From positions 96,001 through 160,000 of the forward strand of contig OZ244717.1 of assembly GCA_965218975.1 (NCBI GenBank): a DNA stretch of 64,000 nucleotides, in the 5' to 3' direction. Of the stretch, positions 5,192 to 57,942 are shown piece after piece. This DNA comes from Candidatus Oxydemutatoraceae bacterium. Lineage in GTDB: Bacteria; Pseudomonadota; Gammaproteobacteria; Poriferisulfidales; Oxydemutatoraceae. Both the position numbers and the translations under genes were made by a program. Positions within the stretch are counted from its first letter, which is position 1. Each line of letters opens with the position of its first letter. The notes under the pieces were generated by a model. It had not been told where the DNA came from, searched no databases, and worked only from the letters and a program-made list of their open reading frames with translations.

Positions 5192-6348
5192 TGTACGATG
5201 CCACCCTAAATGGGATTCTTGGAGGGCTTCGGGGGAAGCGTTCGGCAGTAACATTCGGACCGGTGCTTTCTCCCCGTTGCCGACATGAGGGCGGTGCAGG
5301 GTGAGACGCGCCCGGAAAACCGATCGGTTTTCAGCGGCGAACGACCCGACAAGGACGTCGGGGCTGGCACTCATTGACAGAACCCAGTCTCGTCATGGGT
5401 GAGACGCGCCCGGAAAACCAATTGGTTTTCAGCGGTGAACGACCCGACAAGGACGTCGGGGCTGGAGCTTGTTGACAGAACCCAGTCGCGTCATGGATGA
5501 CAGGCACTTTGCCGACAATCCGGCACAATCCGCCGAAAATCCGACAACAAACACAAAACGGTTTCATAACCGGTCATTGAATGCTTCCGTATCGGCGAAT
5601 AGCAGGTCTTCTGCATGATCGATACAATCTTCTTGGACGGTGCGGTTGAAGCGCTTGATGTGCGCGTTCATTTTCGGACACTTGGGATAGGTCAGCCGTT
5701 GCTCGGTCGCAGGTGATTCCCGGATGAGCCGGGCAAACTGCCCTTGAAACTCACTGCCGCCGTCCGTCAGGGTGAGACGCGCTCGGAAAACCGATCGGTT
5801 TTCAGCGGCGAACGACCCGACAAGGACGTCGGGGCTGGTGCTCATTGACAGAACCAAGTCTCGTCATGGACGACAAGCACTTTGCCAGGTTGCGGCAGTA
5901 CCGACACTATACACGCCAGGGTCAGGCGCAGGAATGCGGCAGCACTACGGCTGTTACAGCGGTTGGTTGCCGTTGCTGTTGCCATACGGGTATAGACATC
6001 AATAGCCTATATGTTGGATTTGCAAGGCTTCTCCTCCTGTCGGCAGGAGTGCCAAATGTTTCTGAGCTTATGCATGCGAGGCGCTAGTCCCAGTGCGGCG
6101 ATAATGCCGACGCCAACGGTACAAAGTGCTGCGACCGACCTTGAATGCGTTCGGGAGTTACAACCCTCCCAAAATGAGGGCATCATATTTCTGTTGAAGT
6201 TTAGAGCACTCATGAGCCTCCATCTTTGAGGTTAAACAGGCTCATATAGAAACCTTTGATGCGGTGGCCGATGTGCTGATATTACATATTGCATATCGGT
6301 CACCTTTTTATTGAAAAGTATTTTCCGGTATGTATCTGGACACGTACA
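5192..6348 (-). mobile_element. degenerate IS481-family element, copy A; transposase pseudogene with 3 copies of the 98-bp module
   Basis: Ends TGTACGTGTCCAGATAC / TGGCATCGTACA; fragments LTDGGSEF...KMNAHIKRFNRTVQE (catalytic E changed to K); modules at 5299-5398, 5397-5496, 5770-5869. Confidence 0.85.
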
Positions 6349-6365
6349 TCAAACCCTTATATGAT
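6337..6365 (+). promoter_or_regulatory. putative hybrid promoter for folB (IS-supplied -35)
   Basis: TGGACA (inside IS end, 6337-6342) - 17 nt - TATGAT (6360-6365). Confidence 0.4.
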
Positions 6366-6393
6366 TAATCTTATTCACTGGCTTGAAGCAATA

Positions 6394-6762
6394 ATGAGTG
6401 CCATTTTTATAGAAGCACTGAAAGTTGACGTTATTATCGGTGTTTTCGAATGGGAAAAACGTATCCCCCAAACAGTGCTAATTGATTTGGAAATAGTAAC
6501 GGATTCATCGGTTGCAGCGATAAGTGACAATATCGCAGATGCTCTCAATTACAAAGATATTGCCAAAAGAGTGATGAATTTCGCCAGCGAAAGTAGATTT
6601 ACGCTAATTGAAACGCTTGCTGAAAGAACTGCTAATCTTCTAATTAAAGAATTTAAAATTTCGACTATTAAGGTAACAGTGAACAAACCAAGAGCTGTGC
6701 GTCATTCAAAAAATGTCCGTATTACCGTAGAAAAATCTGCTCATGAAGAAAGCCTTCGTTAG
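6394..6762 (+). CDS. folB: dihydroneopterin aldolase
   Basis: IIGVFEWEK..PQTVLIDLE, LNYK, LIETLAE; start taken at MSAIF (6394). Confidence 0.95.
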   Translation: MSAIFIEALKVDVIIGVFEWEKRIPQTVLIDLEIVTDSSVAAISDNIADALNYKDIAKRVMNFASESRFTLIETLAERTANLLIKEFKISTIKVTVNKPRAVRHSKNVRITVEKSAHEESLR

Positions 6763-7270
6763 CATCGGTAGCAACATCGATAAAGAGCGCAATGTTGCCA
6801 ATTGCATCAAAACTTTACATCGGACTTTCGGCGCTTTAATTCTATCTCCCGTATACGAATCAAAACCGGTCGGATTTGTCGGGGATAATTTCTACAATAT
6901 GGTTGTTGCTTTCGATACCATACTTTCGCCTCAAAAAATCCACACTTTACTGCGACAGATCGAACATAAATATCAGCGTATCCGGGGGGGGGACAAGTTC
7001 GTCTCACGAACTCTGGACCTAGATCAATTGCTGCATGATAACCTAGTCATTGAAAGTGGCCAGTTGAAACTTCCTAGCGAAGAAATTACCCGATATATGC
7101 ACGTCCTATACCCGCTTGCCGATATTGCCGGAAGTTTGTGTCATCCGATACTGGGAAAAACGTATCGCGAGTTACGTAACAAACTGAATCCGCTCATCAC
7201 GCCGGTCAATATCATTCCGTTTGAGGCAATTGAGAAAAGAACATCCTTACCCGCACGCGACACCGCCTAA
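6743..7270 (+). CDS. folK: 2-amino-4-hydroxy-6-hydroxymethyldihydropteridine diphosphokinase
   Basis: SIGSNI, SPVYES, SRTLDLD motifs; follows folB. Confidence 0.95.
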   Translation: MKKAFVSIGSNIDKERNVANCIKTLHRTFGALILSPVYESKPVGFVGDNFYNMVVAFDTILSPQKIHTLLRQIEHKYQRIRGGDKFVSRTLDLDQLLHDNLVIESGQLKLPSEEITRYMHVLYPLADIAGSLCHPILGKTYRELRNKLNPLITPVNIIPFEAIEKRTSLPARDTA

Positions 7271-8007
7271 TTACTTAACGTGCGTCCTCCATCAACAACG
7301 ATTGTTTGCCCGGTTGTATAATCTGCGTCGCAGATTAGAAAAAGCACCGCATGCGCAATATCACGCGGTTTTCCTTCTCGCTTGAGGGCGGTACGCGCAA
7401 TAATTTCACGATGCACTGCCATATACGATTCCTGCTCCGGCCATAAAATAGCGCCAGGCGCCACCGCATTACAACGTACTTGCGGAGCAAGTTCACGCGC
7501 CAACGCTTTAGTCAATGCGACTAATCCCGCTTTGGCGACCGAATATGCCGAATATGTCTTCAGTGGTCGGTCGGTATGAATATCCGTGATATTAACGATA
7601 CAGCCTCTGCGTTTTTTTAATTCGTTAGCAAAATATTGTGTAAGAAAAAAAGGCGCTTTAATATGTACGCTCAGCATTTCATCCCATTCTTGCTCGGTCG
7701 CCCGCATCATCGGCGTCGGATAAAATGCCGAGGCATTATTGACTAACACGTCAATGCCTCCCCAATGTGCAACCGCTTCTCGCGCTAATTCCCGCAACGC
7801 AGACGATTGCAATAAGTTTGCCCGAATGACATGCGCCGAATCTGCCCGTTTACCGTTCAACGATCGACTGATTTCTTCAACCTCAGAAACGGAGTGGCGA
7901 CAATGCAACAAGACTTTCATACCTTCGTTATGCAACGCCACTGCTATTTCAGCACCGATGCGCCGTCCCGCACCGGTAATCAAAACTACTTTATCTGACG
8001 CTCTCAT
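7267..8007 (-). CDS. pteridine reductase (SDR, FolM/PTR1-like)
   Basis: TGAGRRIG, NNAS, YSVAK; next to folB/folK. Confidence 0.9.
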   Translation of the reverse strand: MRASDKVVLITGAGRRIGAEIAVALHNEGMKVLLHCRHSVSEVEEISRSLNGKRADSAHVIRANLLQSSALRELAREAVAHWGGIDVLVNNASAFYPTPMMRATEQEWDEMLSVHIKAPFFLTQYFANELKKRRGCIVNITDIHTDRPLKTYSAYSVAKAGLVALTKALARELAPQVRCNAVAPGAILWPEQESYMAVHREIIARTALKREGKPRDIAHAVLFLICDADYTTGQTIVVDGGRTLSN

Positions 8008-8072
8008 CCCTATTATTGTGCTTTACTTTGAAGAAAGATTAAAATCAATCATAATAGCCTTCTTCGTTCCTC

Positions 8073-8858
8073 ATGGATTTTATACAGGCAATTACTTTAT
8101 CTTTGGTTCAGGGCCTTACTGAATTTTTGCCGATATCCAGTTCGGCACACCTAATTTTATTTTCAAAGCTAGCCGGTTGGAAGGATCAAGGTGTCGCTTT
8201 TGATGCTGTAGTTCACTTTGGAACATTAACCGCAGTGGTTTTTTACTATCGTGCCACTTTACTGAATAACTCAATCACCAACATCTTGCCGACCAAACAC
8301 CATCCTTTGCTACTCGTCGGTATCGCCAGTATCCCCATTTTTATCGTTGCTTACCAGTTTGAATCAATTATTACATCACAACTACGCACTCCTTTGATCA
8401 TTGCCGGTTCAACCATCTGCTTTGGGCTGCTACTTTGGTTAGCGGACTACGTCGGCAAAAAAGGCAATCCAAGTAACACAATCATCACCGTTCCGTATGC
8501 TTTATTGATTGGTATTGCGCAGATATTAGCTTTGATTCCCGGCACTTCGCGTGCCGGTATAACATTAACAGCGGGTTTATTGCTTGGCTTATCACGCACT
8601 CACGCGACACATTTCTCTTTTCTATTGGCAATTCCAACCATTGCCGCCGCCGTTTTGTACGAGGGACTTAAACTTTCTGCCGTGCCCGATACCGATATTC
8701 AGCTATTATTGGTATTGTTGCTAAGTTTTGCGCTATCTGCTTCTGTCGCACTTTTAACTATTCACTTTTTTCTTGCTTTGGTTGAAAAAATCGGGATGCT
8801 GCCATTTGTCATTTACCGCATTGTTCTCGGCAGTATCCTACTTGTTTTGTTCGGATAA
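8073..8858 (+). CDS. uppP: undecaprenyl-diphosphate phosphatase
   Basis: QGLTEFLPISSSAH and PGTSRAG motifs. Confidence 0.97.
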   Translation: MDFIQAITLSLVQGLTEFLPISSSAHLILFSKLAGWKDQGVAFDAVVHFGTLTAVVFYYRATLLNNSITNILPTKHHPLLLVGIASIPIFIVAYQFESIITSQLRTPLIIAGSTICFGLLLWLADYVGKKGNPSNTIITVPYALLIGIAQILALIPGTSRAGITLTAGLLLGLSRTHATHFSFLLAIPTIAAAVLYEGLKLSAVPDTDIQLLLVLLLSFALSASVALLTIHFFLALVEKIGMLPFVIYRIVLGSILLVLFG

Positions 8859-9992
8859 ATCGGATAAAAAATTATTCAACGCTCGTATTTGCTCCGTTTC
8901 CACCATTATTTTAATCTCCCGAGGGTTATCGTGTTTCAATGCACTGCTCAAATCGGCATGGATAACTTTATGTAACGCCGAATAGATCAACTCACAGACC
9001 GGCGTGCCACGATAGGCATCAAGGTGCGACGGTAACGCACACATTCGCCATACCGGCATTAACATACCCAATCGCTGCGGATTTCTTAGCAAATCATTTT
9101 GCTTAAAAAAGTTAAACAGAGACTCGGCGCTAAAATCTGCGCTGGTTTTCGTCAGTTTATAAAGCTGTGGCATCACTCTGGTTAGTTGCCGATAATTTTT
9201 TGGCGCTTTTAATCCGGCACACCATTCATCAAGCAACAAATCCGCCGCCGCCGCCCAACTTACGAGCACCGCAAAACTGACCTCAGCTTTCCCCTTGGAT
9301 GCGGCGCCGCTCAACGCATTGGCAAGCAATTTCTCAAGCGACAATTCTCCGAATAGAATGTCCAATTCGGCGGCAATAATTTCCAAAGTATTCGTATCTT
9401 TCAATGTACGAAAAAATGCCGCCGGCGCCGGTGTGATAAGCGCTGCGGTTAATTCTTTCCATATACGTTCGGGAACCAGCGTTGAAATCTCGCTTTTAAC
9501 GCTCATCGTCCGCATCAACTCAAGCGTATCGTCGGCGATATAAAACCCTTTCGGTTGAAATCGCGCAAGAAAACGCGCGATGCGTAATACCCGTACCGGA
9601 TCTTCGGCAAAAGCGGGCGATACATGCCGCAGAACTCCTTTGTGCAAGTCATCCAGCCCGCCGAACGGATCAATTAATTCGCCTTCATCGTCTACCGCCA
9701 TTGCGTTAATTGTCAAATCGCGTCGCCGTAGGTCCTCTTCCAAAGTCACATCAGGTCCGGCATGAAAAACAAACCCATGATAGCCTTTTCCGGTCTTACG
9801 CTCAGTTCTTGCCAATGCGTATTCTTCTTTTGTCCGAGGGTGCAAAAATACCGGGAAATCCTTGCCTACCGGCTTAAAATTATGCTCTATCATGACTTCA
9901 GGCGAAGCATCAACCACGACCCAATCGCGCTCGTTTACCGGCAAGCCGAGCAGTTTATCGCGCACTGCTCCACCAACAAGAAAAACTTTCAT
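8838..9992 (-). CDS. cca: tRNA CCA-adding enzyme (short form, HD domain apparently absent)
   Basis: LVGGAVRD, EYALARTE, RRDLTINAMA, EDPVRVLR. Confidence 0.95.
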   Translation of the reverse strand: MKVFLVGGAVRDKLLGLPVNERDWVVVDASPEVMIEHNFKPVGKDFPVFLHPRTKEEYALARTERKTGKGYHGFVFHAGPDVTLEEDLRRRDLTINAMAVDDEGELIDPFGGLDDLHKGVLRHVSPAFAEDPVRVLRIARFLARFQPKGFYIADDTLELMRTMSVKSEISTLVPERIWKELTAALITPAPAAFFRTLKDTNTLEIIAAELDILFGELSLEKLLANALSGAASKGKAEVSFAVLVSWAAAADLLLDEWCAGLKAPKNYRQLTRVMPQLYKLTKTSADFSAESLFNFFKQNDLLRNPQRLGMLMPVWRMCALPSHLDAYRGTPVCELIYSALHKVIHADLSSALKHDNPREIKIMVETEQIRALNNFLSDLSEQNK

Positions 9993-9996
9993 TGAA

Positions 9997-10857
9997 TCAG
10001 GAAATACAGTTATGGCCGACTTCGGATAAGCGTGTCAAACAAGGTTCGGCATTAGTACAAATACTGTCTAATTGCAAGGAACGATAGTTATCAAGGCTGA
10101 AAGGTTTGCCCGGAATCAATTCGCCTATCTGCGCCTGCAGCCTTGCCAAAGGATCAGGTAATGCAATAACGTGAATACGTCGGTGAATCAAACCGGCAAC
10201 ATAATTCACGATTTCGCCTAATGTGAGATGTTCGGGCCCGCATAGCCGGACCCGTTGCCCGGCAGCCTTATCGTCAATACTATCGGCGACCGCAGTGGCA
10301 ACATCTCCAATGTAAACCGGCGCAAACATCGTATGAGCGCATGCTAGCGGTAAAACCGGCGGCGCATACTTCAGAATTTTTACAAACCGATTTAATAATC
10401 CGTCGCCCGGACCAAAAATCACCGATGGCTGAAAACTAGTCGTCCGCATTTTCGCATCATTGTGCGCAATGTTCTCAGATTCACCTTTCGTCCTCAGATA
10501 TTCACTGGGGGCATCGGTTGAAGCATTCAGTGCGCTCATATGTAAATAACGTGTCACATGGTTGAAATGACATGCTTCCAATATCTTGAGAGTCAACCGC
10601 ACATGAGCATCAAAAAAATCCTCGCTACGAAACAACCTGCTATTGAGGATGCCTACCAGATTAATTACAGCATCGGAACCTGCAACCACAGGTATTAGGC
10701 TTGATAGCTTAGACGAATCATATCTGCGCCACTCAAACTCATCTGTCAAAATATTTTGCCGGCTAATTACGCGCACCGAATATCCTCTGTCAGCTAATGC
10801 TATACAAACGGCACGCCCGACAAAACCGCTCCCTCCAATGATTGAAACTTTTTTCAT
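9997..10857 (-). CDS. NAD-dependent epimerase / complex I NDUFA9-family protein
   Basis: GGSGFVG, INLVGIL, YLRTKGE, PSVIFG. Confidence 0.85.
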   Translation of the reverse strand: MKKVSIIGGSGFVGRAVCIALADRGYSVRVISRQNILTDEFEWRRYDSSKLSSLIPVVAGSDAVINLVGILNSRLFRSEDFFDAHVRLTLKILEACHFNHVTRYLHMSALNASTDAPSEYLRTKGESENIAHNDAKMRTTSFQPSVIFGPGDGLLNRFVKILKYAPPVLPLACAHTMFAPVYIGDVATAVADSIDDKAAGQRVRLCGPEHLTLGEIVNYVAGLIHRRIHVIALPDPLARLQAQIGELIPGKPFSLDNYRSLQLDSICTNAEPCLTRLSEVGHNCIS

Positions 10858-10959
10858 TACATTATTCTACAATATGCAATATGACAGAAATTCTCGTTCA
10901 TTTAGGTATGGCATTATCCGTATTATTTCCTAAACCTTGATTTCAAGCAAATATTCACT

Positions 10960-11874
10960 ATGTATATAAAAGTATCAGCTTACGTCACATGGCTATGTTT
11001 GAATATACTCTTTTTTTCGGCTGTGGCGGCAGAAACGGAACCTTCTAATATCATTCGTGAAAATACATCGACAATATCATCTACCAAAAGTATAATGCGG
11101 GAGGCTGTTTTCCAAAACGCATTACACGCTTATCTAAAAGAGCAGTTCAAAGAAGCGGAACTAATCTTTCGAAATCTGCTAGAGCGATATCCGAAAAACC
11201 CTCTAATCCTAAACAACTTAGCTGTTACTATTGCAAAGCAAGGCAAACACGACCTTGCAATCCGACTGCTTAAAAATGCAATTGCATTAAACGAAATTCT
11301 CAATACTAGCTACCAAAATCTTTCATCAATTTATGCATACGAGGCAGTAAATGCGTATCGTCGAGCATTATCTTTAACCATTGATTCACCCGAACCTTTA
11401 GACCTGATTTTAATCGGACACACCGACGAACTGATCAGATCATCGTTTGTCACCAAGCAAATTTTGCAAGACGGGGGAATCAACCAACCTCTAGTGCAAG
11501 AACCCGAAGCCCCGGCTGCTATCGGAAAAGGCGCTATAGACGGCGAGATTATGGCAAACGTGATGCGTTGGGCGAAAGCTTGGTCAAACCGGAATCTTAA
11601 TGAGTATTTTGCAAGCTACCGCGACGGTTATGCTCCTTCGGGCAAAACGCACCGGGAATGGAAGAAACTCCGGATTCAACGTTTGCGCACGCCACAGAAA
11701 ATTCAAGTTGCTATTAACGATGTACACATCCAACGACTGACACCTGACAAGGTAGTAGCAACGTTTCTCCAAAATTATCGTTCGAATTTGCTAAAGAGTA
11801 CAGTAACAAAACGGCTGGAGATGACCCGCATCAACGACGAATGGAAAATCACCGATGAAAAAGTATTACGCTAG
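10960..11874 (+). CDS. exported TPR protein with C-terminal NTF2-like domain
   Basis: Signal peptide, NNLAV TPR repeats, WAKAWS...WKITDE C-terminal domain. Confidence 0.75.
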   Translation: MYIKVSAYVTWLCLNILFFSAVAAETEPSNIIRENTSTISSTKSIMREAVFQNALHAYLKEQFKEAELIFRNLLERYPKNPLILNNLAVTIAKQGKHDLAIRLLKNAIALNEILNTSYQNLSSIYAYEAVNAYRRALSLTIDSPEPLDLILIGHTDELIRSSFVTKQILQDGGINQPLVQEPEAPAAIGKGAIDGEIMANVMRWAKAWSNRNLNEYFASYRDGYAPSGKTHREWKKLRIQRLRTPQKIQVAINDVHIQRLTPDKVVATFLQNYRSNLLKSTVTKRLEMTRINDEWKITDEKVLR

Positions 11875-13968: not shown

Positions 13969-14065
13969 TTATTGTCTCAGACACTTGGTACTCGAAAATA
14001 ATCTTTTCTGATCAAGATTAAAAGATTAAAAAAGGCTAATCTGCAAAAGCGCCGACCCTCCGCTC

Positions 14066-15653
14066 TGTATAATGCCAGATACATATGGGACTCACGGCTT
14101 AACTCGAAAAGATGACCGATATGCAATATCAGCACATCGGCCACCGCATCAAAGATTTCTATATGAGCCAATTTTGCTTTAAAAATAGAGGCTCATGAAC
14201 ACAACGGCTCAACAGAAACACGATGCCATGTTATTTTGGAGGATTGTAACCCTAAACGCATTCAAGGTCGGTCGCAGCACTTTGTCCCGTTGGCGTCGGC
14301 GTTATCGCCGCACTGGCCTCAGCGCCTTGCATGACCGCGGCAAAGCGCCGCGCAAGAGGCGTCGGCGGGTCTGGCTGCAACCCGGCAAAGTGCCTGTCGT
14401 CCATGACGAGACTTGGTTCTGTCAATGAGCGCCAGCCCCGACGTCCTTGTCGGGTCGTTCGCCGCTGAAAACCGATCGGTTTTCCGGGCGCGTCTCACCC
14501 TGCTCGTCCATGACGAGACTTGGTTCTGTCAATGAACCCCAGCCCCGACATCCTTGTCGGGTCGTTCGCCGCTGAAAACCGATCGGTTTTCCGGGCGCGT
14601 CTCACCCTGCCCGAGTGTCCGCACGATTGCGCGCCTGATCGCGGATGCGCCGGATAAAATGCGCTGTATTCCGCAGCGGCTGAATGCCAAAGGACAAACA
14701 AAACGACCGTTTAAGCGCCGTTGCAGGGCACGCAAGCCGAAACACTTCAAAGCACAGTATCCGGGGCATTGCATCGCCCTGGATACGATTGTGCGTTATC
14801 AGCACGGAGTGCGCCGCACCATCTTAACGGCCATCAATGTCCATACCCGAATGGCAATAGCAGTGGCAACCAACCGCTGTAACAGCCGCAACGCAGCCGC
14901 ATTCCTGCGCCTGACCCTGGCGTGTATAGTGTCGGTACTGCCGCAACCTGGCAAAGTGCTTGTCGTCCATGACGAGACTTGGTTCTGTCAATAAGCACCA
15001 GCCCCGACATCCTTGTCGGGTCGTTCGCCGCTGAAAACCGATCGGTTTTCCGAGCGCGTCTCACCCTGACGGACGGCGGGAGTGAGTTTCAAGGACAGTT
15101 TGCCCGGCTCATCCGGGAATCACCCGTGATTGAGCAGTGGCTGACCTATCCCAAGTGTCCAAAAATGAACGCGCACATCAAGCGCTTCAACCGCACCGTC
15201 CAAGAAGATTGTATCGATCATGCAGAAGACCTGCTATTCGCCGATACGGAAGCATTGAATGACCGGTTATGAAACCGTTTTGTGTTTGTTGGTGGATTGT
15301 CGGCGGATTGTGCCGGATTGTCGGCAAAGTGCCTGTCGTCCATGACGAGACTTGGTTCTGTCAATGAGCGCCAGCCCCGACGTCCTTGTCGGGTCGTTCG
15401 CCGCTGAAAACCGACCGGTTTTCCGGGCGCGTCTCACCCTGCTCGTCCATGACGAGACTTGGTTCTGTCAATGAGCGCCAGCCCCGACGTCCTTGTCGGG
15501 TCGTTCGCCGCTGAAAACCGATCGGTTTTCCGGGCGCGTCTCACCCTGCACCGCCCTCATGCCGGCAGCGGACAGAAAGCACCGATCCGAATGTTACTGC
15601 CGAACGCTTCCCCAGAAGCTCTTCAAAAATCCCATTTAGGGTGGCATCGTACA
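14066..15653 (+). mobile_element. degenerate IS481-family element, copy B; 5 copies of the 98-bp module at three sites
   Basis: Ends TGTATAATGCCAGATACATATGGGA / TCCCATTTAGGGTGGCATCGTACA; HTH (RSTLSRWRRRY), ALDT and LTDGGSEF fragments; modules at 14401, 14508, 14967, 15340, 15447. Confidence 0.9.
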
Positions 15654-15658
15654 TTATA

Positions 15659-15686
15659 TTGCTATTTTTTTTTTCTAATGTAGAAT
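15659..15686 (+). promoter_or_regulatory. putative trxA promoter
   Basis: TTGCTA - 16 nt - TAGAAT, starting 5 nt after the IS right end. Confidence 0.55.
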
Positions 15687-15755
15687 AAACCTCTTTGAAA
15701 GCAAAGACCTTTTGCACCGGTTTTCACAAAACAGAATACCCATGGCTCCATAAAA

Positions 15756-16085: not shown

Positions 16086-16266
16086 CTAATATTGCGAGGA
16101 GAAAACAGATAATTACAGACTTTACTCTGTAGTTTGCATATTTTGTAATTTTCATTACTATTACTATATTGGATGCATTCCATTGCCTCTGAATCCTTAA
16201 TAAGCAATCTTGATTCCACCCTCAATAAAAAAACCGTTTACATCAATCTAACCATGAATCTCAATA

Positions 16267-20582: not shown

Positions 20583-20591
20583 ACAATGAGA

Positions 20592-22176: not shown

Positions 22177-22253
22177 TGGCGCGCCTGGCAGGATTCGAAC
22201 CTGCGACCTTTGCCTTCGGAGGGCAACACTCTATCCGACTGAGCTACAGGCGC
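22177..22253 (-). tRNA. tRNA-Arg (anticodon CCG)
   Basis: 77-nt cloverleaf GCGCCTG...GGTTCGAATCC...CAGGCGCGCCA; anticodon arm TTGCC-CTCCGAA-GGCAA. Confidence 0.97.
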
Positions 22254-22382: not shown

Positions 22383-23999
22383 TGCATAGTGCCGGATACA
22401 TACCGGACAAATACTTTTCAATAAAAAGGTGTGTATAGTGCCAGATACATATGGGACTCACGGCTTAACTCGAAAAGGTGACCGATATGCAATATCAGCA
22501 CATCGGCCACCGCATCAAAGGTTTCTATATGAGCCAATTTTGCTTCAAAAATAGAGGCTCATGAACACAACGGCTCAACAGAAACACGATGCCCTGTTAT
22601 TTTGGGAGGATTGTAACTCCCGAACACATTCAAGCTCAGTCGTAGCACTTTGTATGCCTGGCGCAAGCGTTATCGCCGCACTGGGCTCAGCGCCTTGCAT
22701 GACCGCGGCAAAGCACCGCGCAAGAGGCGTCGGCGGATCTGGCCGCAACCTGGCAAAGTGCCTGTCATCCATGACGAGACTTGGTTCTGTCAATGAGCGC
22801 CAGCCTCGACGTCCTTGTCGGGTCGCTTGCCGCTGAAAACCGATCGGTTTTCCGGGCGCATCTCACCCTGCTCGTCCGTGATGAGACTTGGTTCTGCGAA
22901 TGAACCCCAGCCCCGACATCCTTGTTGGGTCGTTCGCCGCTGAAAACCGATCGGTTTTCCGGGCGCATCTCACCCTGCCCGAGTGTCCGCACGATTGCGG
23001 CCTGATCGCGGATGCGCCGGATAAAATGCGCTGTATTCTGCAGCATCTGAATGCCAAAGAACAAACAAAACGACTGTTCAAGCACCGTTGCAAGGCACGC
23101 AAGCCGAAACACTTCAAAGCACAGTATCCGGGGCATTGCATCGCCTTGGATACAATCGTGCGTTATCAGCACGGGGTGCGCCGCACCATATTAACGGCCA
23201 TTGATGTCTATACCCGTATGGCAACAGCAGCGGCAACCAACCGCTGTAACAGCCGTAGTACTGCCGCATTCCTGCACCTGGCAGAATTTCGGCAGCAGTA
23301 AAGTCTTTGAGCTGATGAAACCATTTTGTGTTTGCTGCCGAATTGTCGGCGGATTGTGCCTGTCATCCATGACGCGACTGGGTTCTGTCAACAAGCGCCA
23401 GCCCCGACGTCCTTGTCGGGTCGTTCACCGCTGAAAACCAATTGGTTTTCCGGGCGCGTCTCACCCATGACGAGACTTGGTTCTGTCAACAAGCGCCAGC
23501 CTCGACGTCCTTGTCGGGTCGTTCACCGCTGAAAACCAATTGGTTTTCCGGGCGCGTCTCACCCATGACGAGACTTGGTTCTGTCAACAAGCGCCAGCCC
23601 CGACGTCCTTGTCGGGTCGTTCGCCGCTGAAAACCGATCGGTTTTCCGGGCGCGTCTCACCCTGACGGACGGCGGTAGTGAGTTTCAAGGACAGTTTGCC
23701 CGGCTCATCCGGGAATCACCCGCGATTGAGCAGTGGCTGACCTATCCCAAGTGTCCAAAAATGAACGCGCACATTGAGCGCTTCAACCGCACCGTCCAAG
23801 AAGATTGTATCGATCATGCGGAAGATCTGCTATTCGCCGATACGGAAGCATTCAATGACCGGTTATGGGAGTATTTAGCCTGGTATAAGCTGCACCGTCC
23901 TCATGTCGGCAACGGACAGAAAGCACCGATCCGAATGTTATTGCCGAGCGCTTCCCTCGAAGCTCTTCAAAAATCCCATTTTTAGGGTAACATCGTACA
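22383..23999 (+). mobile_element. degenerate IS481-family element, copy C; stacked left ends (22383, 22432) and 5 modules at two sites
   Basis: Retains D (ALDT), D (LTDGG) and E (HIERF) but is frameshifted and interrupted; modules at 22769, 22876, 23367, 23465, 23563; right end CATCGTACA. Confidence 0.9.
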
Positions 24000-39853: not shown

Positions 39854-40468
39854 TGTACGATGCCACCCTAGTGGGATTCTTGAAGAGCTTCTGGGGAAGC
39901 ATTCGGCAGTAACATTCGGATCGGTGCTTTCTGTCCGTTGCCGGCATGAGGACGGTGCAGGGTGAGACGCGCCCGGAAAACCGAACGGTTTTCAGCGGCG
40001 AACGACCCGACAAGGACGTCGGGGCTGGGGTTTATTCGCAGAACTAAGCTTCGTCATGAACGACAAGTACTTTGCCGGGTTGCGGCCAGATTCGCCGGCG
40101 CCTCTTGCGCGGCGCTTTGTCGCAGTCATACAAGGCACCGAGACCAGTGCGGCGATAACGCCAGCGCCAGCGGTACAAAGTACTGCGACCGACCTTGAAT
40201 GCGCTCGGTGACATCCGATCTGTAGTTTCCCCTGAAACAGCAAGCCGATTACCGATCGGCAGGAAACATCGTGTGTGCATTTAGTCCGTGTTTCTCCCAA
40301 AATGAGGGCATCATATTTCTATTGAGCCGTTGTGTTCATGAGCCTCCATTTTTGAAGCAAAATTGGCTCATATAGAAACCTTTGATGCGGTGGCCGATGT
40401 GCTGATATTGCATATCGGTCACCTTTTTATTGAGGTCCGAGAATCCGGTATGTATCCGGACACGCACA
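39854..40468 (-). mobile_element. internally deleted IS481-family element, copy D, with one 98-bp module (39960-40059)
   Basis: Both termini present; the WPQP segment joins the LHRPH segment through a single module. Confidence 0.85.
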
Positions 40469-40563
40469 CACGGTAAAACCCCCGGATGCGATAGCCTATA
40501 TATTGGATTTGCAAAGCTGCTCCTCCTGTCGGGTGGAGTGCCAAATGTTTCTGAGCTTATGCA
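40469..40563 (-). mobile_element. left end of a second IS481-type element (also found inside copy A at about 6003-6073)
   Basis: TGCATAAGCTCAGAAACATTTGGCACTCC end, GGAGG RBS, start of ORF (M)QIQYIGYRIRGFY paralogous to MQYQHIGHRIKGFY. Confidence 0.7.
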
Positions 40564-40679
40564 CGGTATTCGCCCAAGAAACCATCCGTGAATTCCGGAA
40601 CCGATACAGTGCTGGAGTTGACCAAGCTGGCTCCTCATAATGTAAACTTTATGGCCGACCGTAAATAAATGGAGCGTTT

Positions 40680-46182: not shown

Positions 46183-46183
46183 A

Positions 46184-46195
46184 TGGCATCGTACA
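46184..46195 (+). mobile_element. isolated IS481 right-end 12-mer TGGCATCGTACA
   Basis: Identical to the terminal 12 nt of copies A, B and D; lies at a gene/pseudogene junction. Confidence 0.6.
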
Positions 46196-46492: not shown

Positions 46493-46552
46493 GGTGCCTA
46501 TCAAATGTGCGGCAGTTCAGGTGAGGGCTTCACTAAATAGTTGCTCCAACTT

Positions 46553-51307: not shown

Positions 51308-51550
51308 GGGTAAAAATCAGAGGACAGTTACGTGTTTGACGAAGCAATAAAAGGGGCATACATCTCTTCCGAGCGAAAAGCGTTATTGTATTGGTTTCCG
51401 TAACCTTTGTTTACCTAAATTTCATTTTGCGAGTGATGGCATGAAACACGTCATTATAAATGGCGTGGGAACTTCATCACCCGGGTATTTGGCAGTACGT
51501 CTGATTGATGCCTGCGAGTTAAACAATCAAAGAACAGACAAAAAACCACG

Positions 51551-51669
51551 CCGGTTTCTGTAACGGTTTTCCATTGACGCTGATTCCCGATTCTGTTTGG
51601 GTCGCACCAGTGATCTGTGGCGACTGCATGACCTGGTCGCAACAAGTCCTTTGCCGGTATTCCAGTGAA
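51551..51669. repeat. diverged repeat of about 120 bp; partner at about 56385-56500 (decayed gene fragment)
   Basis: Shared ATTCCCGATTCTGTT...GATCTGTGGCGACTGCA...GTCGCAACAAGTCCTTTGCCGGTAT. Confidence 0.8.
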
Positions 51670-51690
51670 TGTATAGTGCCGGACACATAC
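51670..51690 (+). mobile_element. isolated IS481 left-end fragment
   Basis: TGTATAGTGCCGGACACATAC matches the left ends at 22383/22432 and truncates the repeat at 51551-51669. Confidence 0.7.
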
Positions 51691-51922
51691 AATTCGTCTA
51701 ATGGGATGACTCGCCTCTTGCGGGTCCAGATAAAGCAGCCTACAGTCGTCCCTGGTCATGGCACGCAGGCCATATATGCAGCTTTGTTGATTTTTCTGTG
51801 TCAGCCTAAAATTTTTCGGACAACCTGCTTAAAAAATCAATTGCGTCATTGAAGCTTGCCGGATCCTGTGATTTGGCATAGGACATCCTCGAAACAAATT
51901 GTTCATACTCCACTTTATACAT

Positions 51923-52357
51923 TCATCGCGGCGCCAAAAGTTCGTCCACGTGCTTTGCTACTTCTCGCGCAACTCGTAACAATGCGGCGACGAGTTGTTC
52001 GTCTATTTCCATTGCGCCTTCGTACTCAGCAAGGTTGCGCTTGCGGTGGGCATGGTCCAGTACACGCCACTGCTCCCGAGGCAGATTGATGGTGTGTTGC
52101 AGGCATTGAAAGACCAGATAACGCGAATCGGAGCGGTAGCCTTGCGTTCGCAAAGCTGCGAGCGCGAGCGCATGGGCCGCGTTGTAGCCAAGGTCAAAAC
52201 GGCTCTCCAGGCTCAAGTCCTTTCTTCCGGCATCGTCAAGGCGGCGTAAGCCGGAACGAAACAGACCCTCGATTTCCTCCTCCACGGCCAGCTCCGCCTT
52301 GAGTTGACCGATGCGCGCCAGATTATCGAGTTGCTGATTTGTCGTTTTCTTTTCCAA
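51923..52357 (-). CDS. HEPN-like toxin partner
   Basis: RFDLGYNAAH...HRKRNLAEYEG; translationally coupled to a nucleotidyltransferase. Confidence 0.7.
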   Translation of the reverse strand: MEKKTTNQQLDNLARIGQLKAELAVEEEIEGLFRSGLRRLDDAGRKDLSLESRFDLGYNAAHALALAALRTQGYRSDSRYLVFQCLQHTINLPREQWRVLDHAHRKRNLAEYEGAMEIDEQLVAALLRVAREVAKHVDELLAPR

Positions 52358-52988
52358 TGAGCACCAGACGTTCGCCGGCGAACACCCGGGTCAGGAAGGT
52401 GTTTCCGGCCGATCGTCGAGCGTTGAACTCCTGCACCGTATAGAGAATGGGGCTGATCTTGCGGTCAAGGCTCGATTCCACAGGAGCAAGCGCGGTGTAG
52501 AGATCTTCCAGCATCATGCCGTCAGCGGTGACGAGCAGATCTATATCGCTGTCTGCCGTATCTGTGCCATGCACGACGGAACCGTAGATCATAGCCAGCG
52601 TAATGCGGTCGGCAAAAGGCTCCAGCGCCTGCCGGATCGGCTCAACCATGGCAACTGTTTTGCGCACGATGCCAACTAGTTCGTGATACACGGGACCGGC
52701 GGGATTGGCCTTGTAATGCTTCTGCGTTCCGATTGAGGTAACGTTCACCAGCCTGCTGGAGGCCAAGCGCTGTAGCTCGCGCTGCACAGCTCCGGAACCG
52801 GAGCCGGTCAGCTCGATCAACTCACTGGTAAAAAAGCTCCGGTCGGGCTGGCCGAATAGTAGGGCCAGAACCCGCTGCTGGGTGGTGGTGAAGAGCGCAT
52901 CGGCGAGACTGGTGGGTGTACCGACGTGCTCAGCCGCCGTCTTGCGGCGGGTCGGCCGCGACAGGCGTGTTGGTGTTGATATGCCCAT
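52323..52988 (-). CDS. HTH + nucleotidyltransferase antitoxin
   Basis: SLADALFTTTQQRVL HTH region; YGSVVHGTDTADSDIDLL; start set at MGIS. Confidence 0.85.
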   Translation of the reverse strand: MGISTPTRLSRPTRRKTAAEHVGTPTSLADALFTTTQQRVLALLFGQPDRSFFTSELIELTGSGSGAVQRELQRLASSRLVNVTSIGTQKHYKANPAGPVYHELVGIVRKTVAMVEPIRQALEPFADRITLAMIYGSVVHGTDTADSDIDLLVTADGMMLEDLYTALAPVESSLDRKISPILYTVQEFNARRSAGNTFLTRVFAGERLVLIGKENDKSATR

Positions 52989-52995
52989 AATGGGT

Positions 52996-53025
52996 ATTCT
53001 AATGCCTGATCCGGGCAATATGCAA
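52996..53025 (-). promoter_or_regulatory. putative promoter of the HTH-MNT/HEPN operon, with operator-like palindromes
   Basis: TTGCAT - 18 nt - TAGAAT; palindromes CCCATAATGGG (52984-52994) and TGCCTGATCCGGGCA (53003-53017). Confidence 0.55.
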
Positions 53026-53130
53026 TGTGTGTATAAGTCCATAACATTTAGCACTCCGGCGGCACTTCGGGTGGTGAGTCAAAAGCGATTGTATCGGGGA
53101 CTGCAACCCCAGTGAATGTCAGTGAATAAT

Positions 53131-53830
53131 GGGTGAGCCGCGCCTCGGAAAACCGAATGGGTGAGCCGCGCCCGGAAAACCAATTGGTTTTCAGCGGCGA
53201 ACGACCCGACAAGGGCGTCGGGGCTGGGGTTTATTTGCAGAACCAAGCTTCGTCATGGACGACATGTACTGTGCTAATAATCCGGTACAATCTGCCACCA
53301 AACGCAAAACTGATAAGCCGCGCCCGGAAAACCAATTGGTTTTCAGCGGCGAACGACCCGACAAGGACGTCGGGGCTGGGGTTTATTTGCAGAACCAAGC
53401 TTCGTCATGGACGACATGTACTGTGCTAATAATCCGGTACAATCTGCCACCAAATGCAAAACTGATAAGCCGCGCCCGGAAAACCAATTGGTTTTCAGCG
53501 GCGAACGACCCGACAAGGACGTCGGGGCTGGGGTTTATTTGCAGAACCAAGCTTCGTCATGGACGACATGTACTGTGCTAATAATCCGGTACAATCTGCC
53601 ACCAAACGCAAAACTGATAAGCCGCGCCCGGAAAACCAATTGGTTTTCAGCGGCGAACGACCCGACAAGGACGTCGGGGCTGGGGTTTATTGACAGCACG
53701 AAATGGACGACAAGCTCTGTCAAGGACGACATGTGGCACAATCCGGCACAATCCACCAACAACCCTGCACAATCCGGCACAACCCTGCTACCAAACACAA
53801 AACGGGTGAGCCGCGCCCGGAAAATCGATC
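53131..53830. repeat. tandem array of extended module: 152-bp period (units at 53165, 53317, 53469, 53621) plus two partial units
   Basis: Direct reading; the first three units are nearly identical. Confidence 0.95.
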
Positions 53831-54165
53831 TCTTGACTTCGTAGGTTTTGGCCTTGATTTTGGTTTGGTCGCGGCAAATCTTCCTGTACGATTCTCCAGA
53901 CGACCGCAAAATCAATCTCAAAATAGCCATGTACGATGCGATTGCGCAAACTGATGATGTGAGGCCAAGAAATTTCCCGATGTGCTTTCCTAATATCTTC
54001 ACTGACACGGGAAGCGCCTTCTCCCACAATTTCCAGCACTTTAAGAATCGCATTCCGGTGTAAATCGCTCTGTACAAACTGCGAGTAAGTAAGTCCTTTT
54101 GCAAATGCTATTGCCTTACGTGCAGCTACCAGCATATCAAGCAGGTAGGCGTCGTCACGCCGCAT
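53788..54165 (-). CDS. HepT-like (DUF86) HEPN ribonuclease; in frame but with a foreign C-terminus
   Basis: MRRDDAYLLDML...RNRIVHGY; runs into the repeat array after DLPR. Confidence 0.8.
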   Translation of the reverse strand: MRRDDAYLLDMLVAARKAIAFAKGLTYSQFVQSDLHRNAILKVLEIVGEGASRVSEDIRKAHREISWPHIISLRNRIVHGYFEIDFAVVWRIVQEDLPRPNQNQGQNLRSQEIDFPGAAHPFCVW

Positions 54166-54463
54166 AGATGACTTCAACGGAATCTAGAATCGCCTTCCGG
54201 CGAATGTAGTTATGGCTTTGCTCCACTGACGTACGTGTCAGAACATCCACTCGTCTACCGAACAAGTCTGATAACTCAGAGGCTATACTGACAAACTTCA
54301 ACCCCGGCGTATGACCTGGCGCAAACTCTACCAGTATGTCAACGTCGCTCTCCGGTCCGAAATCTTTTCTTAATGCTGAACCAAAGATCGCGAGCTGGAC
54401 TATGCCGTTTGCACGACAGAACTCAGCAACGCGGTCCTTTGGAATGTACAAACCCGGATTCAT
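54155..54463 (-). CDS. MntA-like nucleotidyltransferase antitoxin (second copy)
   Basis: GSALRKDFGPESDVD; the upstream in-frame extension QQKHDAL is IS-derived. Confidence 0.9.
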   Translation of the reverse strand: MNPGLYIPKDRVAEFCRANGIVQLAIFGSALRKDFGPESDVDILVEFAPGHTPGLKFVSIASELSDLFGRRVDVLTRTSVEQSHNYIRRKAILDSVEVIYAA

Positions 54464-54759
54464 GCTAATGAGGGCATCGTGTTTCTGTTGAATCTTAGAG
54501 CGTTCATGAGCCTCCATTCTTGAAGCTAAATTGGCTCATATAGAAATCTTTGATGCGGTGGCCGATGTGCTGATATTGCATGTCGGTCACCTTTTTAAAT
54601 CGTGCCGTGAGTCCCATATGTATCTGGCACCATACAATATTTGTATGACCGCCACAGCTGCACACTAGTGTTGTTGAATGACGGCCCGACAAGGGTAATC
54701 AAGGATGGTCAGGGATAGTCTAAGCGGGGGGATGGTTCAATGCCCAGTACGATGTTCGC

Positions 54760-55561
54760 GTGAAATGCCGCAATAACTACAGGCATTTGTTTGAACTATG
54801 CAAGTTTTTGAGATCACCAATGTTATTGATCAACTCAGAGGTAGAACAGTGGATCGCGCCTGCGCTATTCCTTGCTTGGGACCGGCACATTCTAAATGGT
54901 GGCCTAGATGACAAAATGTCCTTGATGGATCTTATAACCTCAGAAGAATTTTACAAACTACTCGGAGTGACACAGGAATTCGTAACTATGCGGGCAAACC
55001 GACTAGTTGATCTATACATTAACGTCGGACGTCGGACGTCTCGCCCGCCTCCTTAGTGCAAAAAAGTTACCTTCGGTTGAGGCTGGTAAAGATGCAGCCA
55101 TACTTGATGCGCGAGAACCACCTGAAGTGCCCGAAGAAGAAGGACTTGAATGGCTTGAACAACAGGTATCAGATGAGGCTGTTGAACGGCAGCCGGTTGA
55201 ACGGCAGGAGCAGAAACGCAACCGAAAAAAGGCAGCTGCACTTAAAAAGCACTACGACAACACCTGCATGTTCTGTGGTGCTCGGCCACAGGTTTCGGAG
55301 GATACTTTCTACTCGGAAGCTGCACACATTAGGGGTTTAGGCGAACTTCACAATGGACCTGACAAAGCGAGTAATATGATCGTGTTGTGCCCAAATCACC
55401 ATCCACAATTTGACCAAGGCATGCTCCGGCTTTACAAGGACGGCGCCCGCTACCGCATCATATCAAAAATAGTAGGTGGCCCATTGCATGGAAAAGAAAT
55501 TGCCCTAGCGCACTCTGTTGACGACTACTGCATAGAGTGCCATTACAACTGGCTTAAGTAG
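54760..55561 (+). pseudogene. HNH endonuclease split by a 7-bp duplication
   Basis: CMFCG...EAAHI...LCPNHH..FD; removing one CGTCGGA (55023-55036) joins ORFs 54760 and 55007 in frame. Confidence 0.75.
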
Positions 55562-55573
55562 ACAAGAATTTAG

Positions 55574-56308
55574 GTGAAAATTGTGGAGCTCTCGGTACTG
55601 GAATACAACTGGGGTACTGCAAGGGAAGATATACAGAGGGTCCTAATAGATACTGCCTCTCATATCAACAGAGAACTGAGGCATAAGTTTGATGGCAAGA
55701 TCAATGTGTTAAATCTTCCAGAGGAAAATAGCCCGAAAACCTACTACAGAAACTTGTCCAGTGATTCTTATCGCATCAATTTAACTGCCAACGATAACAG
55801 ATGGAGTCAGTTTGCTTACCAGTTCGCGCACGAATTTTGCCATGTCCTGTCAGGCCACGAAAACTTAAGGGGCAACCCTAACAACTGGTTTCATGAATCA
55901 ATCTGTCAACTTGCTTCCTTATTTACACTTCGCAGGATGGGTGAACGTTGGCCATCAAATCCGCCGTCTCCCAACTGGGCAGATTACGCGACTAGTCTGA
56001 CATGCTACGCGAAAGACATTCTTGTGAATGCCAGGCAGTATTCGCCTCCAGATGGCAAATTTGATGCTTGGCTGCAATCTAACGAAAAGCAATTGCGAAG
56101 CGATCCGTATCTGCGTAAAAAAAACCTCGTAGTCGCAGCTAGGCTTCTTCCCCTGTTCGAACAGCAAATGCAAGGCTGGAATGTTATCACCAAACTTCCA
56201 AACTCGATGTCTAGGTTTCCCAAATATCTGTCAGAATGGAAGTTAGATATTGATCCTGAAGACCGGCTTTTTTTAGAACAAGTGAAAAACAAGTTAACCG
56301 GAATGTAG
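55574..56308 (+). CDS. uncharacterised zincin-like metallopeptidase
   Basis: FAHEFCH (HExxH) followed by NWFHES. Confidence 0.65.
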   Translation: MKIVELSVLEYNWGTAREDIQRVLIDTASHINRELRHKFDGKINVLNLPEENSPKTYYRNLSSDSYRINLTANDNRWSQFAYQFAHEFCHVLSGHENLRGNPNNWFHESICQLASLFTLRRMGERWPSNPPSPNWADYATSLTCYAKDILVNARQYSPPDGKFDAWLQSNEKQLRSDPYLRKKNLVVAARLLPLFEQQMQGWNVITKLPNSMSRFPKYLSEWKLDIDPEDRLFLEQVKNKLTGM

Positions 56309-56384
56309 GGTTATCTACCTTGGCATCAAGAGCCATTGGGGTCACTGCGGTTACTACACGCAACACTGCTCGTGAATCAAATAA

Positions 56385-56819
56385 CCGGTCCTGTAACGAT
56401 TTTTCATTGACCCTAATTCCCGATTCTGTTCTGATCGCATCATTGATCTGTGGCGACTGCAGACCCAGTCGCAACAAGTCCTTTGCCGGTATCCCGGTAA
56501 AAACGCCAATACAAAAACCATCCATCGCACCGATGCGACCCTTCATCCGAAAGGTATTCAAGGGCACAGCACGCAACCTGCAGGTACACACTATCTGTCC
56601 AGACGTGCCAGGCATCCGGAGCTCTTTATTGTCCATACGATCCGCAACAGACCGCCACAGGCTGGAATCCACCAGCCAGGCGCAACCGGCGCTGCAATGT
56701 GCGACGCGGCAAGGAAACTTTTAGTGCATTTTTTATCTCTTCTACGGCCCCCCCTCAGGAAACTTCGCAACAATTTGTAGTACGGAATCAAGTTCAATTT
56801 GAGAAACTTTTTTTGGCAT
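56385..56819 (-). pseudogene. decayed N-terminus of an HTH-containing, probably Fic-family gene
   Basis: Manual translation MPKKVSQIELDSVLQIVAKFPEG / VEEIKNALKVSLPRRTLQRRL with frameshifts; family assignment is from memory. Confidence 0.5.
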
Positions 56820-56827
56820 GGTTTTTC

Positions 56828-56892
56828 TGGCGCGATTAGTCTATTGCGCCACAATAATAATACTTATTTGGCGCATTTCAGTATTCGCGCCA
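56828..56892. promoter_or_regulatory. pair of TGGCGC-N12-GCGCCA operator-like palindromes
   Basis: 56828-56851 and 56869-56892, immediately upstream of the 56819 start. Confidence 0.6.
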
Positions 56893-56963
56893 TTTTAAGT
56901 GGCATGAAAAACTCAATTTTTATATTTATCACTGAAAAAACCCAAAATACTCTAAAAAAAATT

Positions 56964-57942
56964 TAAATAAGCTCAGAAACACTTGGAATCGTTTTGTGTT
57001 TGTACCGGATGTTCGGCGGATTGTGCCGGATTGTGCCGGGCTGTTAGCAAAGTACTTGTCGTCCATGACGAAGCTTAGTCCTGCGAATAAACCCCAGCCC
57101 CGACGTCCTTGTCGGGTCGTTCGCCGCTGAAACCCGTTCGGTTTTCCGAGCGCGCCTCACCCATGACGCGACTTGGTTCTGTCAATAAGCCCCAGCCTCG
57201 ACATCCTTGTCGGGTCGTTCGCCGCTGAAACCCGTTCGGTTTTCCGAGCGCGCCTCACCCATGACGCGACTTGGTTCTGTCAATAAGCCCCAGCCTCGAC
57301 ATCCTTGTCGGGTCGTTCGCCGCTGAAACCCGTTCGGTTTTCCGAGCGCGCCTCACCCATGACGCGACTTGGTTCTGTCAATAAGCCCCAGCCTCGACAT
57401 CCTTGTCGGGTCGTTCGCCGCTGAAACCCGTTCGGTTTTCCGAGCGCGCCTCACCCATGACGCGACTTGGTTCTGTCAATAAGCCCCAGCCTCGACATCC
57501 TTGTCGGGTCGTTCGCCGCTGAAACCCGTTCGGTTTTCCGAGCGCGCCTCACCCATGACGCGACTTGGTTCTGTCAATAAGCCCCAGCCTCGACATCCTT
57601 GTCGGGTCGTTCGCCGCTGAAAACCGTTCGGTTTTCCGGGGCGCGGCTCACCCGTTTTGTGTTTGGTGGCAGATTATTAGCAAAGTGCTTGGTGCAGGTT
57701 TGTCGGCAAAGTACTTGGTGCAGGTTTGTCGGCAAAGTACTTGTCGTCCATGACGAGACTTCGTGCTGTCAATGAGCCCCAGCCCCAACGTCCATGTCGG
57801 GTCGTTCGCCGCTGAAAACCGATCGGTTTTCCGAGGCGCGGCTCACCCATTATTCACTGGCATTCACTGGGGTTGCAATCCCCGATACAATCGCTCTTGA
57901 CTCACCACTCGGAGTGCCAAATATTATAGACCTATCTATACA
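56964..57942. mobile_element. MITE-like element with IS481-type ends, filled by the module array
   Basis: Ends TAAATAAGCTCAGAAACACTTGG and (reverse) TGTATAGATAGGTCTATAATATTTGGCACTCC; no coding capacity. Confidence 0.7.
57063..57848. repeat. tandem array: six 98-bp modules (57063, 57161, 57259, 57357, 57455, 57553), a linker with 26-bp subrepeats, and a seventh module (57748)
   Basis: Direct reading; units 2-5 appear identical and there are no spacers. Confidence 0.97.

Follow-up and report, generated by a model that had tools for sequence, protein, structure and literature searches.

The stretch of DNA analyzed here, referred to as the window, comprises 64,000 nucleotides of a Candidatus Oxydemutatoraceae bacterium, corresponding to bases 96001-160000 of a single 2,081,000-bp contig (genome G000; 99.4% complete). 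It carries decayed insertion sequences (ISs) of the IS481 type, interrupted by copies of a 98-bp module that is here regarded, as a best guess, as the conserved core of a small DNA element, non-coding and non-autonomous. BLAST searches recovered 25 full copies of this module in six loci of the window (3+5+5+1+4+7), the same counts as those given in a preliminary description made from the sequence alone, plus a 27-nt 3′ fragment at 53804-53830, and Tandem Repeats Finder returned periods of 98, 107 and 152 bp. A 100-nt query of the core matched seven places at ≤3 mismatches and none in 100 shuffles, and by reading all six loci were found to sit between IS481-type ends.

The translation between the modules revealed a DDE transposase. 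The best NCBIfam match of the interrupted open reading frame (ORF; P0001) was transpos_IS481 (E 5e-21, 75 bits), a score that falls under the 224-bit NCBIfam cut-off because the ORF is a fragment, and Pfam rve was matched at E 3e-5. The terminal inverted repeats of the IS were read as TGTATAATGCCAG...ATGGGA on the left and an inverted match on the right, with the ends of window loci 5 and 6 coming from a second IS481-like subtype. Segments of the IS recur 32-94 times in G000, in which no intact transposase gene is left (the longest open rve frame has 246 aa), and the nearest intact relatives elsewhere, of 348-355 aa and at most 52% identity, are devoid of the module. The native IS of ~1114 bp was mapped from module-free stretches of three copies by coordinate offsets only, no joined sequence being built, and on this map the sites S1 to S5 lie at positions 343, 437, 781, 1009 and 1026 (Table 1).

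Table 1. IS481-type copies, modules and associated features of the window (coordinates in window positions; a slash marks a join).
Feature	Position	Strand	Details
Decayed IS481-type copy	5192..6300	-	Right terminus ...TGGCATCGTACA (reverse complement) at 5192; left end truncated; read, and segment matches
Two tandem modules, period 98, at IS C/D junction (site S4)	5299..5496	-	BLAST, tandem-repeat search
One module at S3, before ...TGACGGACGG (DDE 'TDGGSEF' codons)	5770..5869	-	
IS481-type copy with both inverted ends (TGTATAATGCCAG...TGGCATCGTACA) and five modules	14066..15658	+	
Two modules, period 107 (spacer TGCTCGT), then S2 flank TGCCCGAGTG	14401..14607	+	
One module at S3	14967..15066	+	
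Full-length unit (tail GTTTTGTGTTTG...GTCGTCC + module), then second module, period 107, at S4	15272..15546	+	
IS481-type copy	22432..23996	+	Modules 22769-22975 (2, period 107) and 23367-23662 (3, period 98)
Empty S4 site	23850..23910	+	Native ...GGTTATGGGAGTATTTAGCCTGGTATAAGC/TGCACCG, coding for FNDRLWEYLAWYKLHRPH
IS481-type copy with internal deletion (A - tail - module - D)	39854..40470	-	One module, 39960-40058
Composite element: IS481 left end, MntA/HepT gene pair, 152-bp-period array, right end of second IS481 subtype	53030..54636	-	
Array of full-length units, period 152 (3.5 copies), plus 27-nt 3′ fragment	53159..53830	-	Variant end ...GGCTTATC
MITE-like derivative (MITE, miniature inverted-repeat transposable element): second-subtype IS terminus, tail, seven modules, second-subtype right end	56966..57943	+	
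Seven modules of the MITE-like derivative	57063..57653; 57748..57848	+	98-bp array; single copy

Three hairpins and a constant single-stranded motif (TCGTTCGCCG) make up the module core, whose 3′ terminus, ...CTCACCC, is invariant. Nearly all non-tandem copies have ...GCAAAGTGCCTGTCGTCC before them and, farther away, degenerate GGATTGTSSC repeats starting at GTTTTGTGTTTG, the repetitive tail upstream of the core reaching up to ~74 bp. Core and upstream tail together make up the mobile unit in G000, of ~150-172 bp. This tail is foreign to the IS, since a native IS copy without it occurs at G000 ~210860-211480, where S2 reads AAACCGTTTTG CCATCGCCACCAGCTGCTC/TGCCCAAG (KPFCHRHQLLCPS); in the filled S2 copies, tail and module stand in place of 18-25 nt. 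The label 'structured' given to the module found no support from covariation inside the window (0 of 25 predicted pairs) and drew it from the comparison with the relatives presented below. A linked change at core positions 74/77 (151 G-C, 83 A-T, 13 other) is placed in a would-be hairpin loop and counts as a single event, because it separates two lineages. Compensatory variants of hairpin 3 were also observed within G000 (241562-244998 and 1035046), with AAAAGCAATTGCTTTT in four copies and AAAATCGATCGATTTT in one. In addition, a ~24-nt palindrome, CTGYCTGTGRRYAYRCAGACAGG, is found inside the loops of hairpins 2 and 3 of one module copy (G000 405429 and 405488) and adjoining module ends at G000 712706 and 785809 (four copies in all); this looks like a third level of nesting.

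Over the whole genome, BLAST yielded 327 high-scoring segment pairs to the core in 96 loci, 311 of them of at least 80 bp, and the repeat amounts to ~1.5% of G000 DNA. Core position 100 was reached by 298 copies, beyond which ~40 different flank classes were found, in agreement with the sharp TCACCC end followed by diverse sequences that had been reported for the window. By reading of the flanks, IS481-type DNA surrounds 92 of the 96 loci; non-IS DNA was present on both sides of two loci (G000 393299 and 365975), and two further ones had partly non-IS surroundings (G000 405383 and 1035012). The proposal that the module lives only inside IS481 elements therefore describes most loci of this genome, and it did not hold outside G000, where relatives occupy other contexts. 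At G000 405000-405390, the translated frame upstream of one module resembled, by eye, the N-terminal portion of the R subunit of a type I restriction enzyme, truncated by the insertion. At G000 1034800-1035800, a ~300-bp unit is repeated three times, each formed by ~220 bp of non-IS DNA and a 5′-truncated module (core 22-100), and its join, CACCC/TGCGCGAGCGG, has 8 nt (CCCTGCGC) in common with the native site upstream.

The two ends of the unit behaved very differently in a junction census, in which the BLAST matches of 142 IS/module clusters were chained against native pieces plus one full unit, resulting in 73 junction classes, with joins to non-IS DNA added by flank inspection. The unit was left at its last base (position 172) in 16 of the 73 classes, at position 170 in one more and at other positions in three. 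Classes leaving the unit's end led to unit positions 1, 67, 75 and 106 (arrays) and to 12 IS positions; among the 17 partners with readable native sequence, the base before the join was C in 16, and CC in 12, and TGC or TGA came after it in roughly half of the classes. Entry from the IS into the unit comprised 26 classes, all at unit positions 1-70 and none within the 98-bp core, and the 27 classes of IS-to-IS joins were spread along the ~1114-bp IS, one of them (417 to 997, 34 copies) being an artefact because the reference piece held a transduced X piece. The 5′ side is ragged because the repetitive tail precedes the core, and many 5′ classes corresponded to phases of the tail repeat or to joins at homologies of 8-10 nt (e.g. 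GTCGGCGG, GGCAAAG), so that a good part of the raggedness is secondary. Thus, from the one fixed and one ragged end of the preliminary description, the former was sustained by the classes gathered at the last base and by the restricted range of entries, and much of the latter was attributable to tail slippage and homology-driven joins. A GAGAC...GTCTC arrangement near the two module ends, resembling outward-facing type IIS sites, was set aside as a probable coincidence.

The comparison of empty and filled sites revealed that the module has moved on its own at least once. The empty sites of a divergent IS481 copy (G000 559560-559680 and 236990-237100) read ...CTCAACCCTCCC/TGCCGATAGG, ending in CCCTCCC before the join, and the same point is filled in three other copies by the whole unit, TTTTGTGTTTG...CTCACCC, placed antisense to the transposase gene, with no target loss and no duplication beyond three ambiguous C. 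As had been claimed, no target duplication was visible, and this sole clean filled/empty pair has 0-3 ambiguous bases (CCC). The filled S4 site lacked 23 nt of target and held the unit accompanied by AAACC derived from the flank of the S2 donor (X segment), and the filled S3 sites differed over ~19-30 nt upstream, some of them carrying ~70 nt of the X segment; these losses and run-on products indicate that the upstream limit of the copied stretch varies and can extend into the donor flank. All X segments (22/22) were preceded by the module.

For most of the copies, a better explanation is hitch-hiking on a non-autonomous IS481 lineage invaded beforehand, together with unequal recombination between copies. 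The ancestral junctions S1, S2, S3 and S4 account for 30, 18, 28 and 53 copies, S4 being filled in 53 and empty in a handful, and module orientation equals IS orientation in 95 of the 96 loci. Two module haplotypes show the same arrangement in many loci, with type II within arrays and type I last, and almost no multi-part architecture recurs among the 142 clusters (examples are A1X1X1XmC11D and bC1C1C1DDb). The replication-strand bias is weak (60 vs 36 loci, p 0.018), reflects IS orientation and was not used as evidence. Pairwise likeness at S4 (32 copies) was 94.1% for the modules and 92.7% for 100 nt of neighbouring IS sequence. Module and IS have thus diverged to the same degree, which makes the modules as old as the IS burst. 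The order of events, which we infer along with the passive amplification, may have been the entrance of a unit in the transposase gene of an IS481-family element, with three or four further sites of that gene receiving copies of it afterwards. A transposase since lost would then have acted in trans on the disabled IS, which multiplied and carried the modules to ~90 places, and recombination between direct module copies would have made each IS copy different by means of deletions and duplicated IS segments, also generating arrays with periods of 98, 107, 152, 197 and ~300 bp.

Relatives of the module were found in other genomes by means of a covariance model (R1) built from 20 window copies and run on 53 genomes of the order, which matched G004 (E 1.7e-4) and G008 (E 0.008). 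Judged by their sequences, both matches are clearly homologous to the module, as they have in common with it the first hairpin across the 5′ boundary of the core (GYCR-TCCR-YGRC), the second hairpin with loop TCCTT, the motif CGTTCGCCG, a third hairpin of different sequence and ...GGCTCACCC at the 3′ end. The G004 element lies after a tRNA-Thr, the 3′ part of which is present a second time directly at the 3′ end of the element; in G008, a 149-bp array adjoins a tRNA-Lys, with a tRNA 5′ fragment bordering the end of every unit. The two native bases before the join were CC in both genomes. In the window, the interval 22180-22253 (-) was noted, the relatives in other genomes likewise adjoining tRNA genes.

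A motif scan of metagenomes provided 90 loci, 80 of which were read; family features were present in 27 of them (23 non-identical), and the rest looked like chance. CTCACCC is the terminus of all 27, with unrelated sequences beyond it, and in L062 and L124 the sequence CTCACCC/ATGGCGAGAC is the head-to-tail junction of the 98-bp arrays of G000. Across 26 sequences, compensatory changes were observed in 5 of the 11 consensus pairs, including one hairpin-2 pair (GC 16, CG 7, AU 1) and the closing pair of hairpin 3 (GC 13, CG 9, AU 4). On metagenome contig L114 (2128 bp), a transposase gene of ISCR clade Ia (IS91 family; E 3.7e-81) is interrupted by four copies within 900 bp, three in one orientation and one in the other. 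The traD gene of an integrative and conjugative element (ICE) is broken at ~residue 203 in four contigs; an in-frame insertion similar to the Rickettsia palindromic elements was considered and rejected here, the coverage of the query region by TraD homologues being only 34%, which indicates that the gene is broken there. Other metagenome copies lie just past the ends of ordinary genes (nusG, homoserine dehydrogenase, DegP-like protease) or beside a tRNA and an integrase fragment, which suggests a preference for mobile DNA, though not a general one. By sequence homology, then, the module is part of a wider family with diverged relatives in two related genomes and 27 metagenome loci, which is a new finding. 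This family is sparse: the motif occurs in 4 of the 53 genomes of the order, among them G016, without hairpins by reading, and in 3 of 401 sampled genomes of the class, G000 counted. BLAST with the module gave no match against 40 relatives, nor did blastn against a plasmid collection, and a strict two-hairpin pattern, too strict since a looser motif found the relatives, retrieved no loci in genome contigs or in metagenome contigs.

The reading tentatively preferred here is that of a small element without terminal inverted repeats (TIRs), multiplied by an end-anchored, rolling-circle-like, one-ended copying and by passive spread with IS481. The end-anchored joining is genuine, and the expansion in G000 appears to have been mostly passive. 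The moves of the element itself would be anchored at the 3′ end, with the strand ...CACCC-3′ joined to DNA that natively follows C or CC, often before TGC, and the upstream limit would be set elsewhere, by truncation within the tail or by run-on into the donor flank. Chemically, the likeliest process would be cleavage of a single strand and its transfer in rolling-circle fashion (HUH, as in one-ended events of IS91/ISCR), with the enzyme supplied in trans. The class of the enzyme is here suggested by analogy, because the invariant end with subterminal palindromes, the join after C/CC, the lack of duplication, the run-on and truncation and the head-to-tail arrays all recall rolling-circle systems. 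The idea of a secondary parasite with a one-ended mechanism, advanced in the preliminary description, accordingly survives for the clean antisense insertion, which one-ended copying fits, and loses its hold on most copies, which look passively spread with the S1-S4 junctions.

Several observations weigh against this reading. No HUH, reverse transcriptase (RT) or recombinase partner of the sort formerly envisaged was found: Y1_Tnp (PF01797) had no match in G000 (the control matched in 6 of 14 genomes) or in the two related carriers, G004 and G008; RVT_1 had none in G000 (the control matched in 3 of 14 genomes) and was present in one of the two carriers, G004 and not G008, which share no candidate enzyme; and Resolvase (serine recombinase) and DEDD_Tnp_IS110 were absent from G000. 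The region downstream of the transposase of a plasmid ISCR (L157) reached at best 8.1 bits with R1 (E 0.72), and the flank (C)/TGC of the module, with TGC/TGA in only about half of the classes, differs from the CTTG/GTTC target of IS91/ISCR. The modules were no more uniform than the IS and gave no sign of recent independent activity. Finally, stretches of 6-8 nt are common to several joins and existing donor flanks (TGCGCC, TGCACCG, CCCTGCC, CCCTGCGC), and short-homology recombination alone would produce the same joins. Regarding the other profiles, the IS91-type PF04986 and NF033538 had no match in G000, a result that is uninformative because the control genomes were equally silent, and the sole recombinases found in G000 were tyrosine recombinases (5-6 matches). 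The same L157 score left the module as an ISCR origin end unsupported.

If those shared nucleotides were the whole explanation, no dedicated mobility would be needed, and the module would be a recombination-prone piece of a decaying IS, reshuffled by slippage, template switching and short-homology recombination among ~90 dead copies. This is unlikely, though it retains a real chance of being correct, given the microhomologies of 2-8 nt at both kinds of junction, the 5′ joins at repeated tail motifs (IS position 307 is joined to unit positions 21/32/42/52), the architecture unique to each copy, the equal divergence of module and IS and the failure to find an enzyme. It leaves unexplained, however, that a single phosphodiester gathers 16 classes versus the 27 IS-to-IS classes dispersed over 1114 bp, that one clean, full-length insertion is antisense, that the same terminus and head-to-tail junction recur in unrelated contexts of other genomes, and that the hairpins were kept via compensatory changes. 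The precise 3′ join, the variable 5′ extent with 5′ microhomology and the target losses of 18-25 nt would also suit a retroelement resembling the short interspersed elements (SINEs), whose RNA ending in ...CACCC would be copied by an RT priming on DNA 3′ ends with GG/CC microhomology. Incomplete or run-on templates would then generate the ragged 5′ end, and end-to-end template jumping the head-to-tail arrays, whose several periods share one 3′ junction. Such a reading is improbable in view of the distribution of RVT_1, absent from G000 and G008 and present only in G004, and we know of no bacterial SINE-like element of this kind.

Selection on a functional structured sequence (an RNA stabiliser, terminator-like signal or protein-binding site, similar to REP/ERIC), with the spread being incidental, would account for hairpins conserved with covariation and for the metagenome relatives often placed just past gene ends, such as those of nusG, homoserine dehydrogenase and the DegP-like protease. 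Yet in G000 the copies lie within dead transposase genes, where no such function is plausible, the fixed join point and the arrays are left unexplained and no Rfam match exists, which makes this option quite improbable. CC flanks the unit on either side and precedes most join points, which, like the tyrosine recombinases of G000, could in turn indicate that a conservative site-specific recombinase acts on the unit through a short CC core common to donor end and targets. No reciprocal products were found, however, the flanks to the right of S2-S4 being preceded by the module or by native sequence; neither a serine recombinase nor IS110 was present; and a variable 5′ limit would be unexpected for such an enzyme, rendering this possibility very improbable.

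The end-anchored, rolling-circle-like reading finds its closest parallel in the IS91/ISCR elements. PMC13181058 describes IS91 as having no inverted repeats, no duplication and one or two subterminal palindromes at the origin end, which lies next to a short target, with 1-14% of one-ended events and a mini-element of 89+82 bp. The module likewise lacks inverted repeats and duplication and gives one-ended products. According to the same source (PMC13181058), the likeness extends to one dominant end with subterminal palindromes abutting a short preferred target, to a run-on past the other end that mobilises the flank, and to a minimal element of ~170 bp. On the other hand, the flanks after CACCC (TGC.., TGA.., GGC.., GTT.., ATT.. 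and others) show no conserved tetranucleotide as in IS91, the module has no likeness to the plasmid ISCR locus, and on L114 it interrupts the ISCR gene instead of ending it.

REP/BIME-REPIN sequences with RAYT and the IS200/IS605-derived PATEs are short, hairpin-rich, non-coding repeats that generate no duplication and are thought to move as single strands via HUH Y1 enzymes. The module is similarly short, hairpin-rich, non-coding and free of duplications, but differs from them in the absence of Y1_Tnp (G000 and the two carrier relatives), in its longer unit, in its three hairpins and in lying inside IS genes and not between host genes. ERIC, Correia, RUP and the Rickettsia palindromic elements are structured repeats of ~100-150 bp, with tens to hundreds of copies, some of them within genes, and have TIRs and usually a TA duplication, neither TIRs nor duplication being found in the module. 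The 5′-truncated non-LTR (long terminal repeat) and group II retroelements resemble it in the precise 3′ end, variable 5′ end, 5′ microhomology and small target deletions; G000, in contrast, has no RT, and the module has no intron-like Rfam match and only 98-172 bp. A classical MITE was rejected, the ends being GTTTTGTG... or GCCATCC... versus ...CTCACCC, with no duplication beyond 0-3 ambiguous C. A group II intron fragment, integron attC, dif/Xer and a diversity-generating retroelement were considered on the basis of known motifs and discarded, as nothing matched.

The module also remained without a name, as previously stated: at the gathering threshold, Rfam recognized only a tRNA in the window; at E≤10, positions 14000-15700 gave chance-level matches only; the loci of eighteen relatives gave only tRNAs; and no published description or name was found in the open-access literature searched. 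A bolder and doubtful proposal is that of a previously undescribed family of ~110-170-bp, three-hairpin elements without TIRs or target-site duplications, copied from ...CTCACCC by a trans-acting single-strand enzyme or RT, preferring other mobile DNA (IS481, ISCR, ICE genes, tRNA-linked islands) and able to disable it and then ride it. If true, it would represent an orphan rolling-circle 'origin-only' parasite or a bacterial analogue of SINEs. Small structured repeats are common in bacteria, and the mode of movement is known for few families. The present case offers a natural record of 311 copies, filled and empty sites, arrays of five periods, ~20 independent joins at one base and covarying relatives. 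If an enzyme were tied to the ...CTCACCC end, this would be a new trans-mobilised element and a clear case of a mobile element parasitising others (IS481 here; ISCR and ICE elsewhere). In practical terms, this repeat, at ~1.5% of the genome, will break short-read assemblies and confuse IS annotation.

Two other features of the window are recorded here. The composite element of Table 1 carries, as cargo between the IS481 left end and the module array, a pair encoding an MntA-like antitoxin and a HepT-like toxin (53791-54517, -), with NCBIfam E values of 2.5e-9 and 7.6e-7, both under the curated cut-offs. A further ~100-bp repeat, starting with TGCATAAGCTCAGAAACATTTGGCACTCC and containing the palindrome CTCCTGCCGACAGGAG, was found at window positions 40480-40600 and 5990-6075 and at G000 1363311 and 1751600; it seems to represent the left terminus of the second IS481 subtype, and module ends are joined within it at ...CTCC/TGCCGAC.

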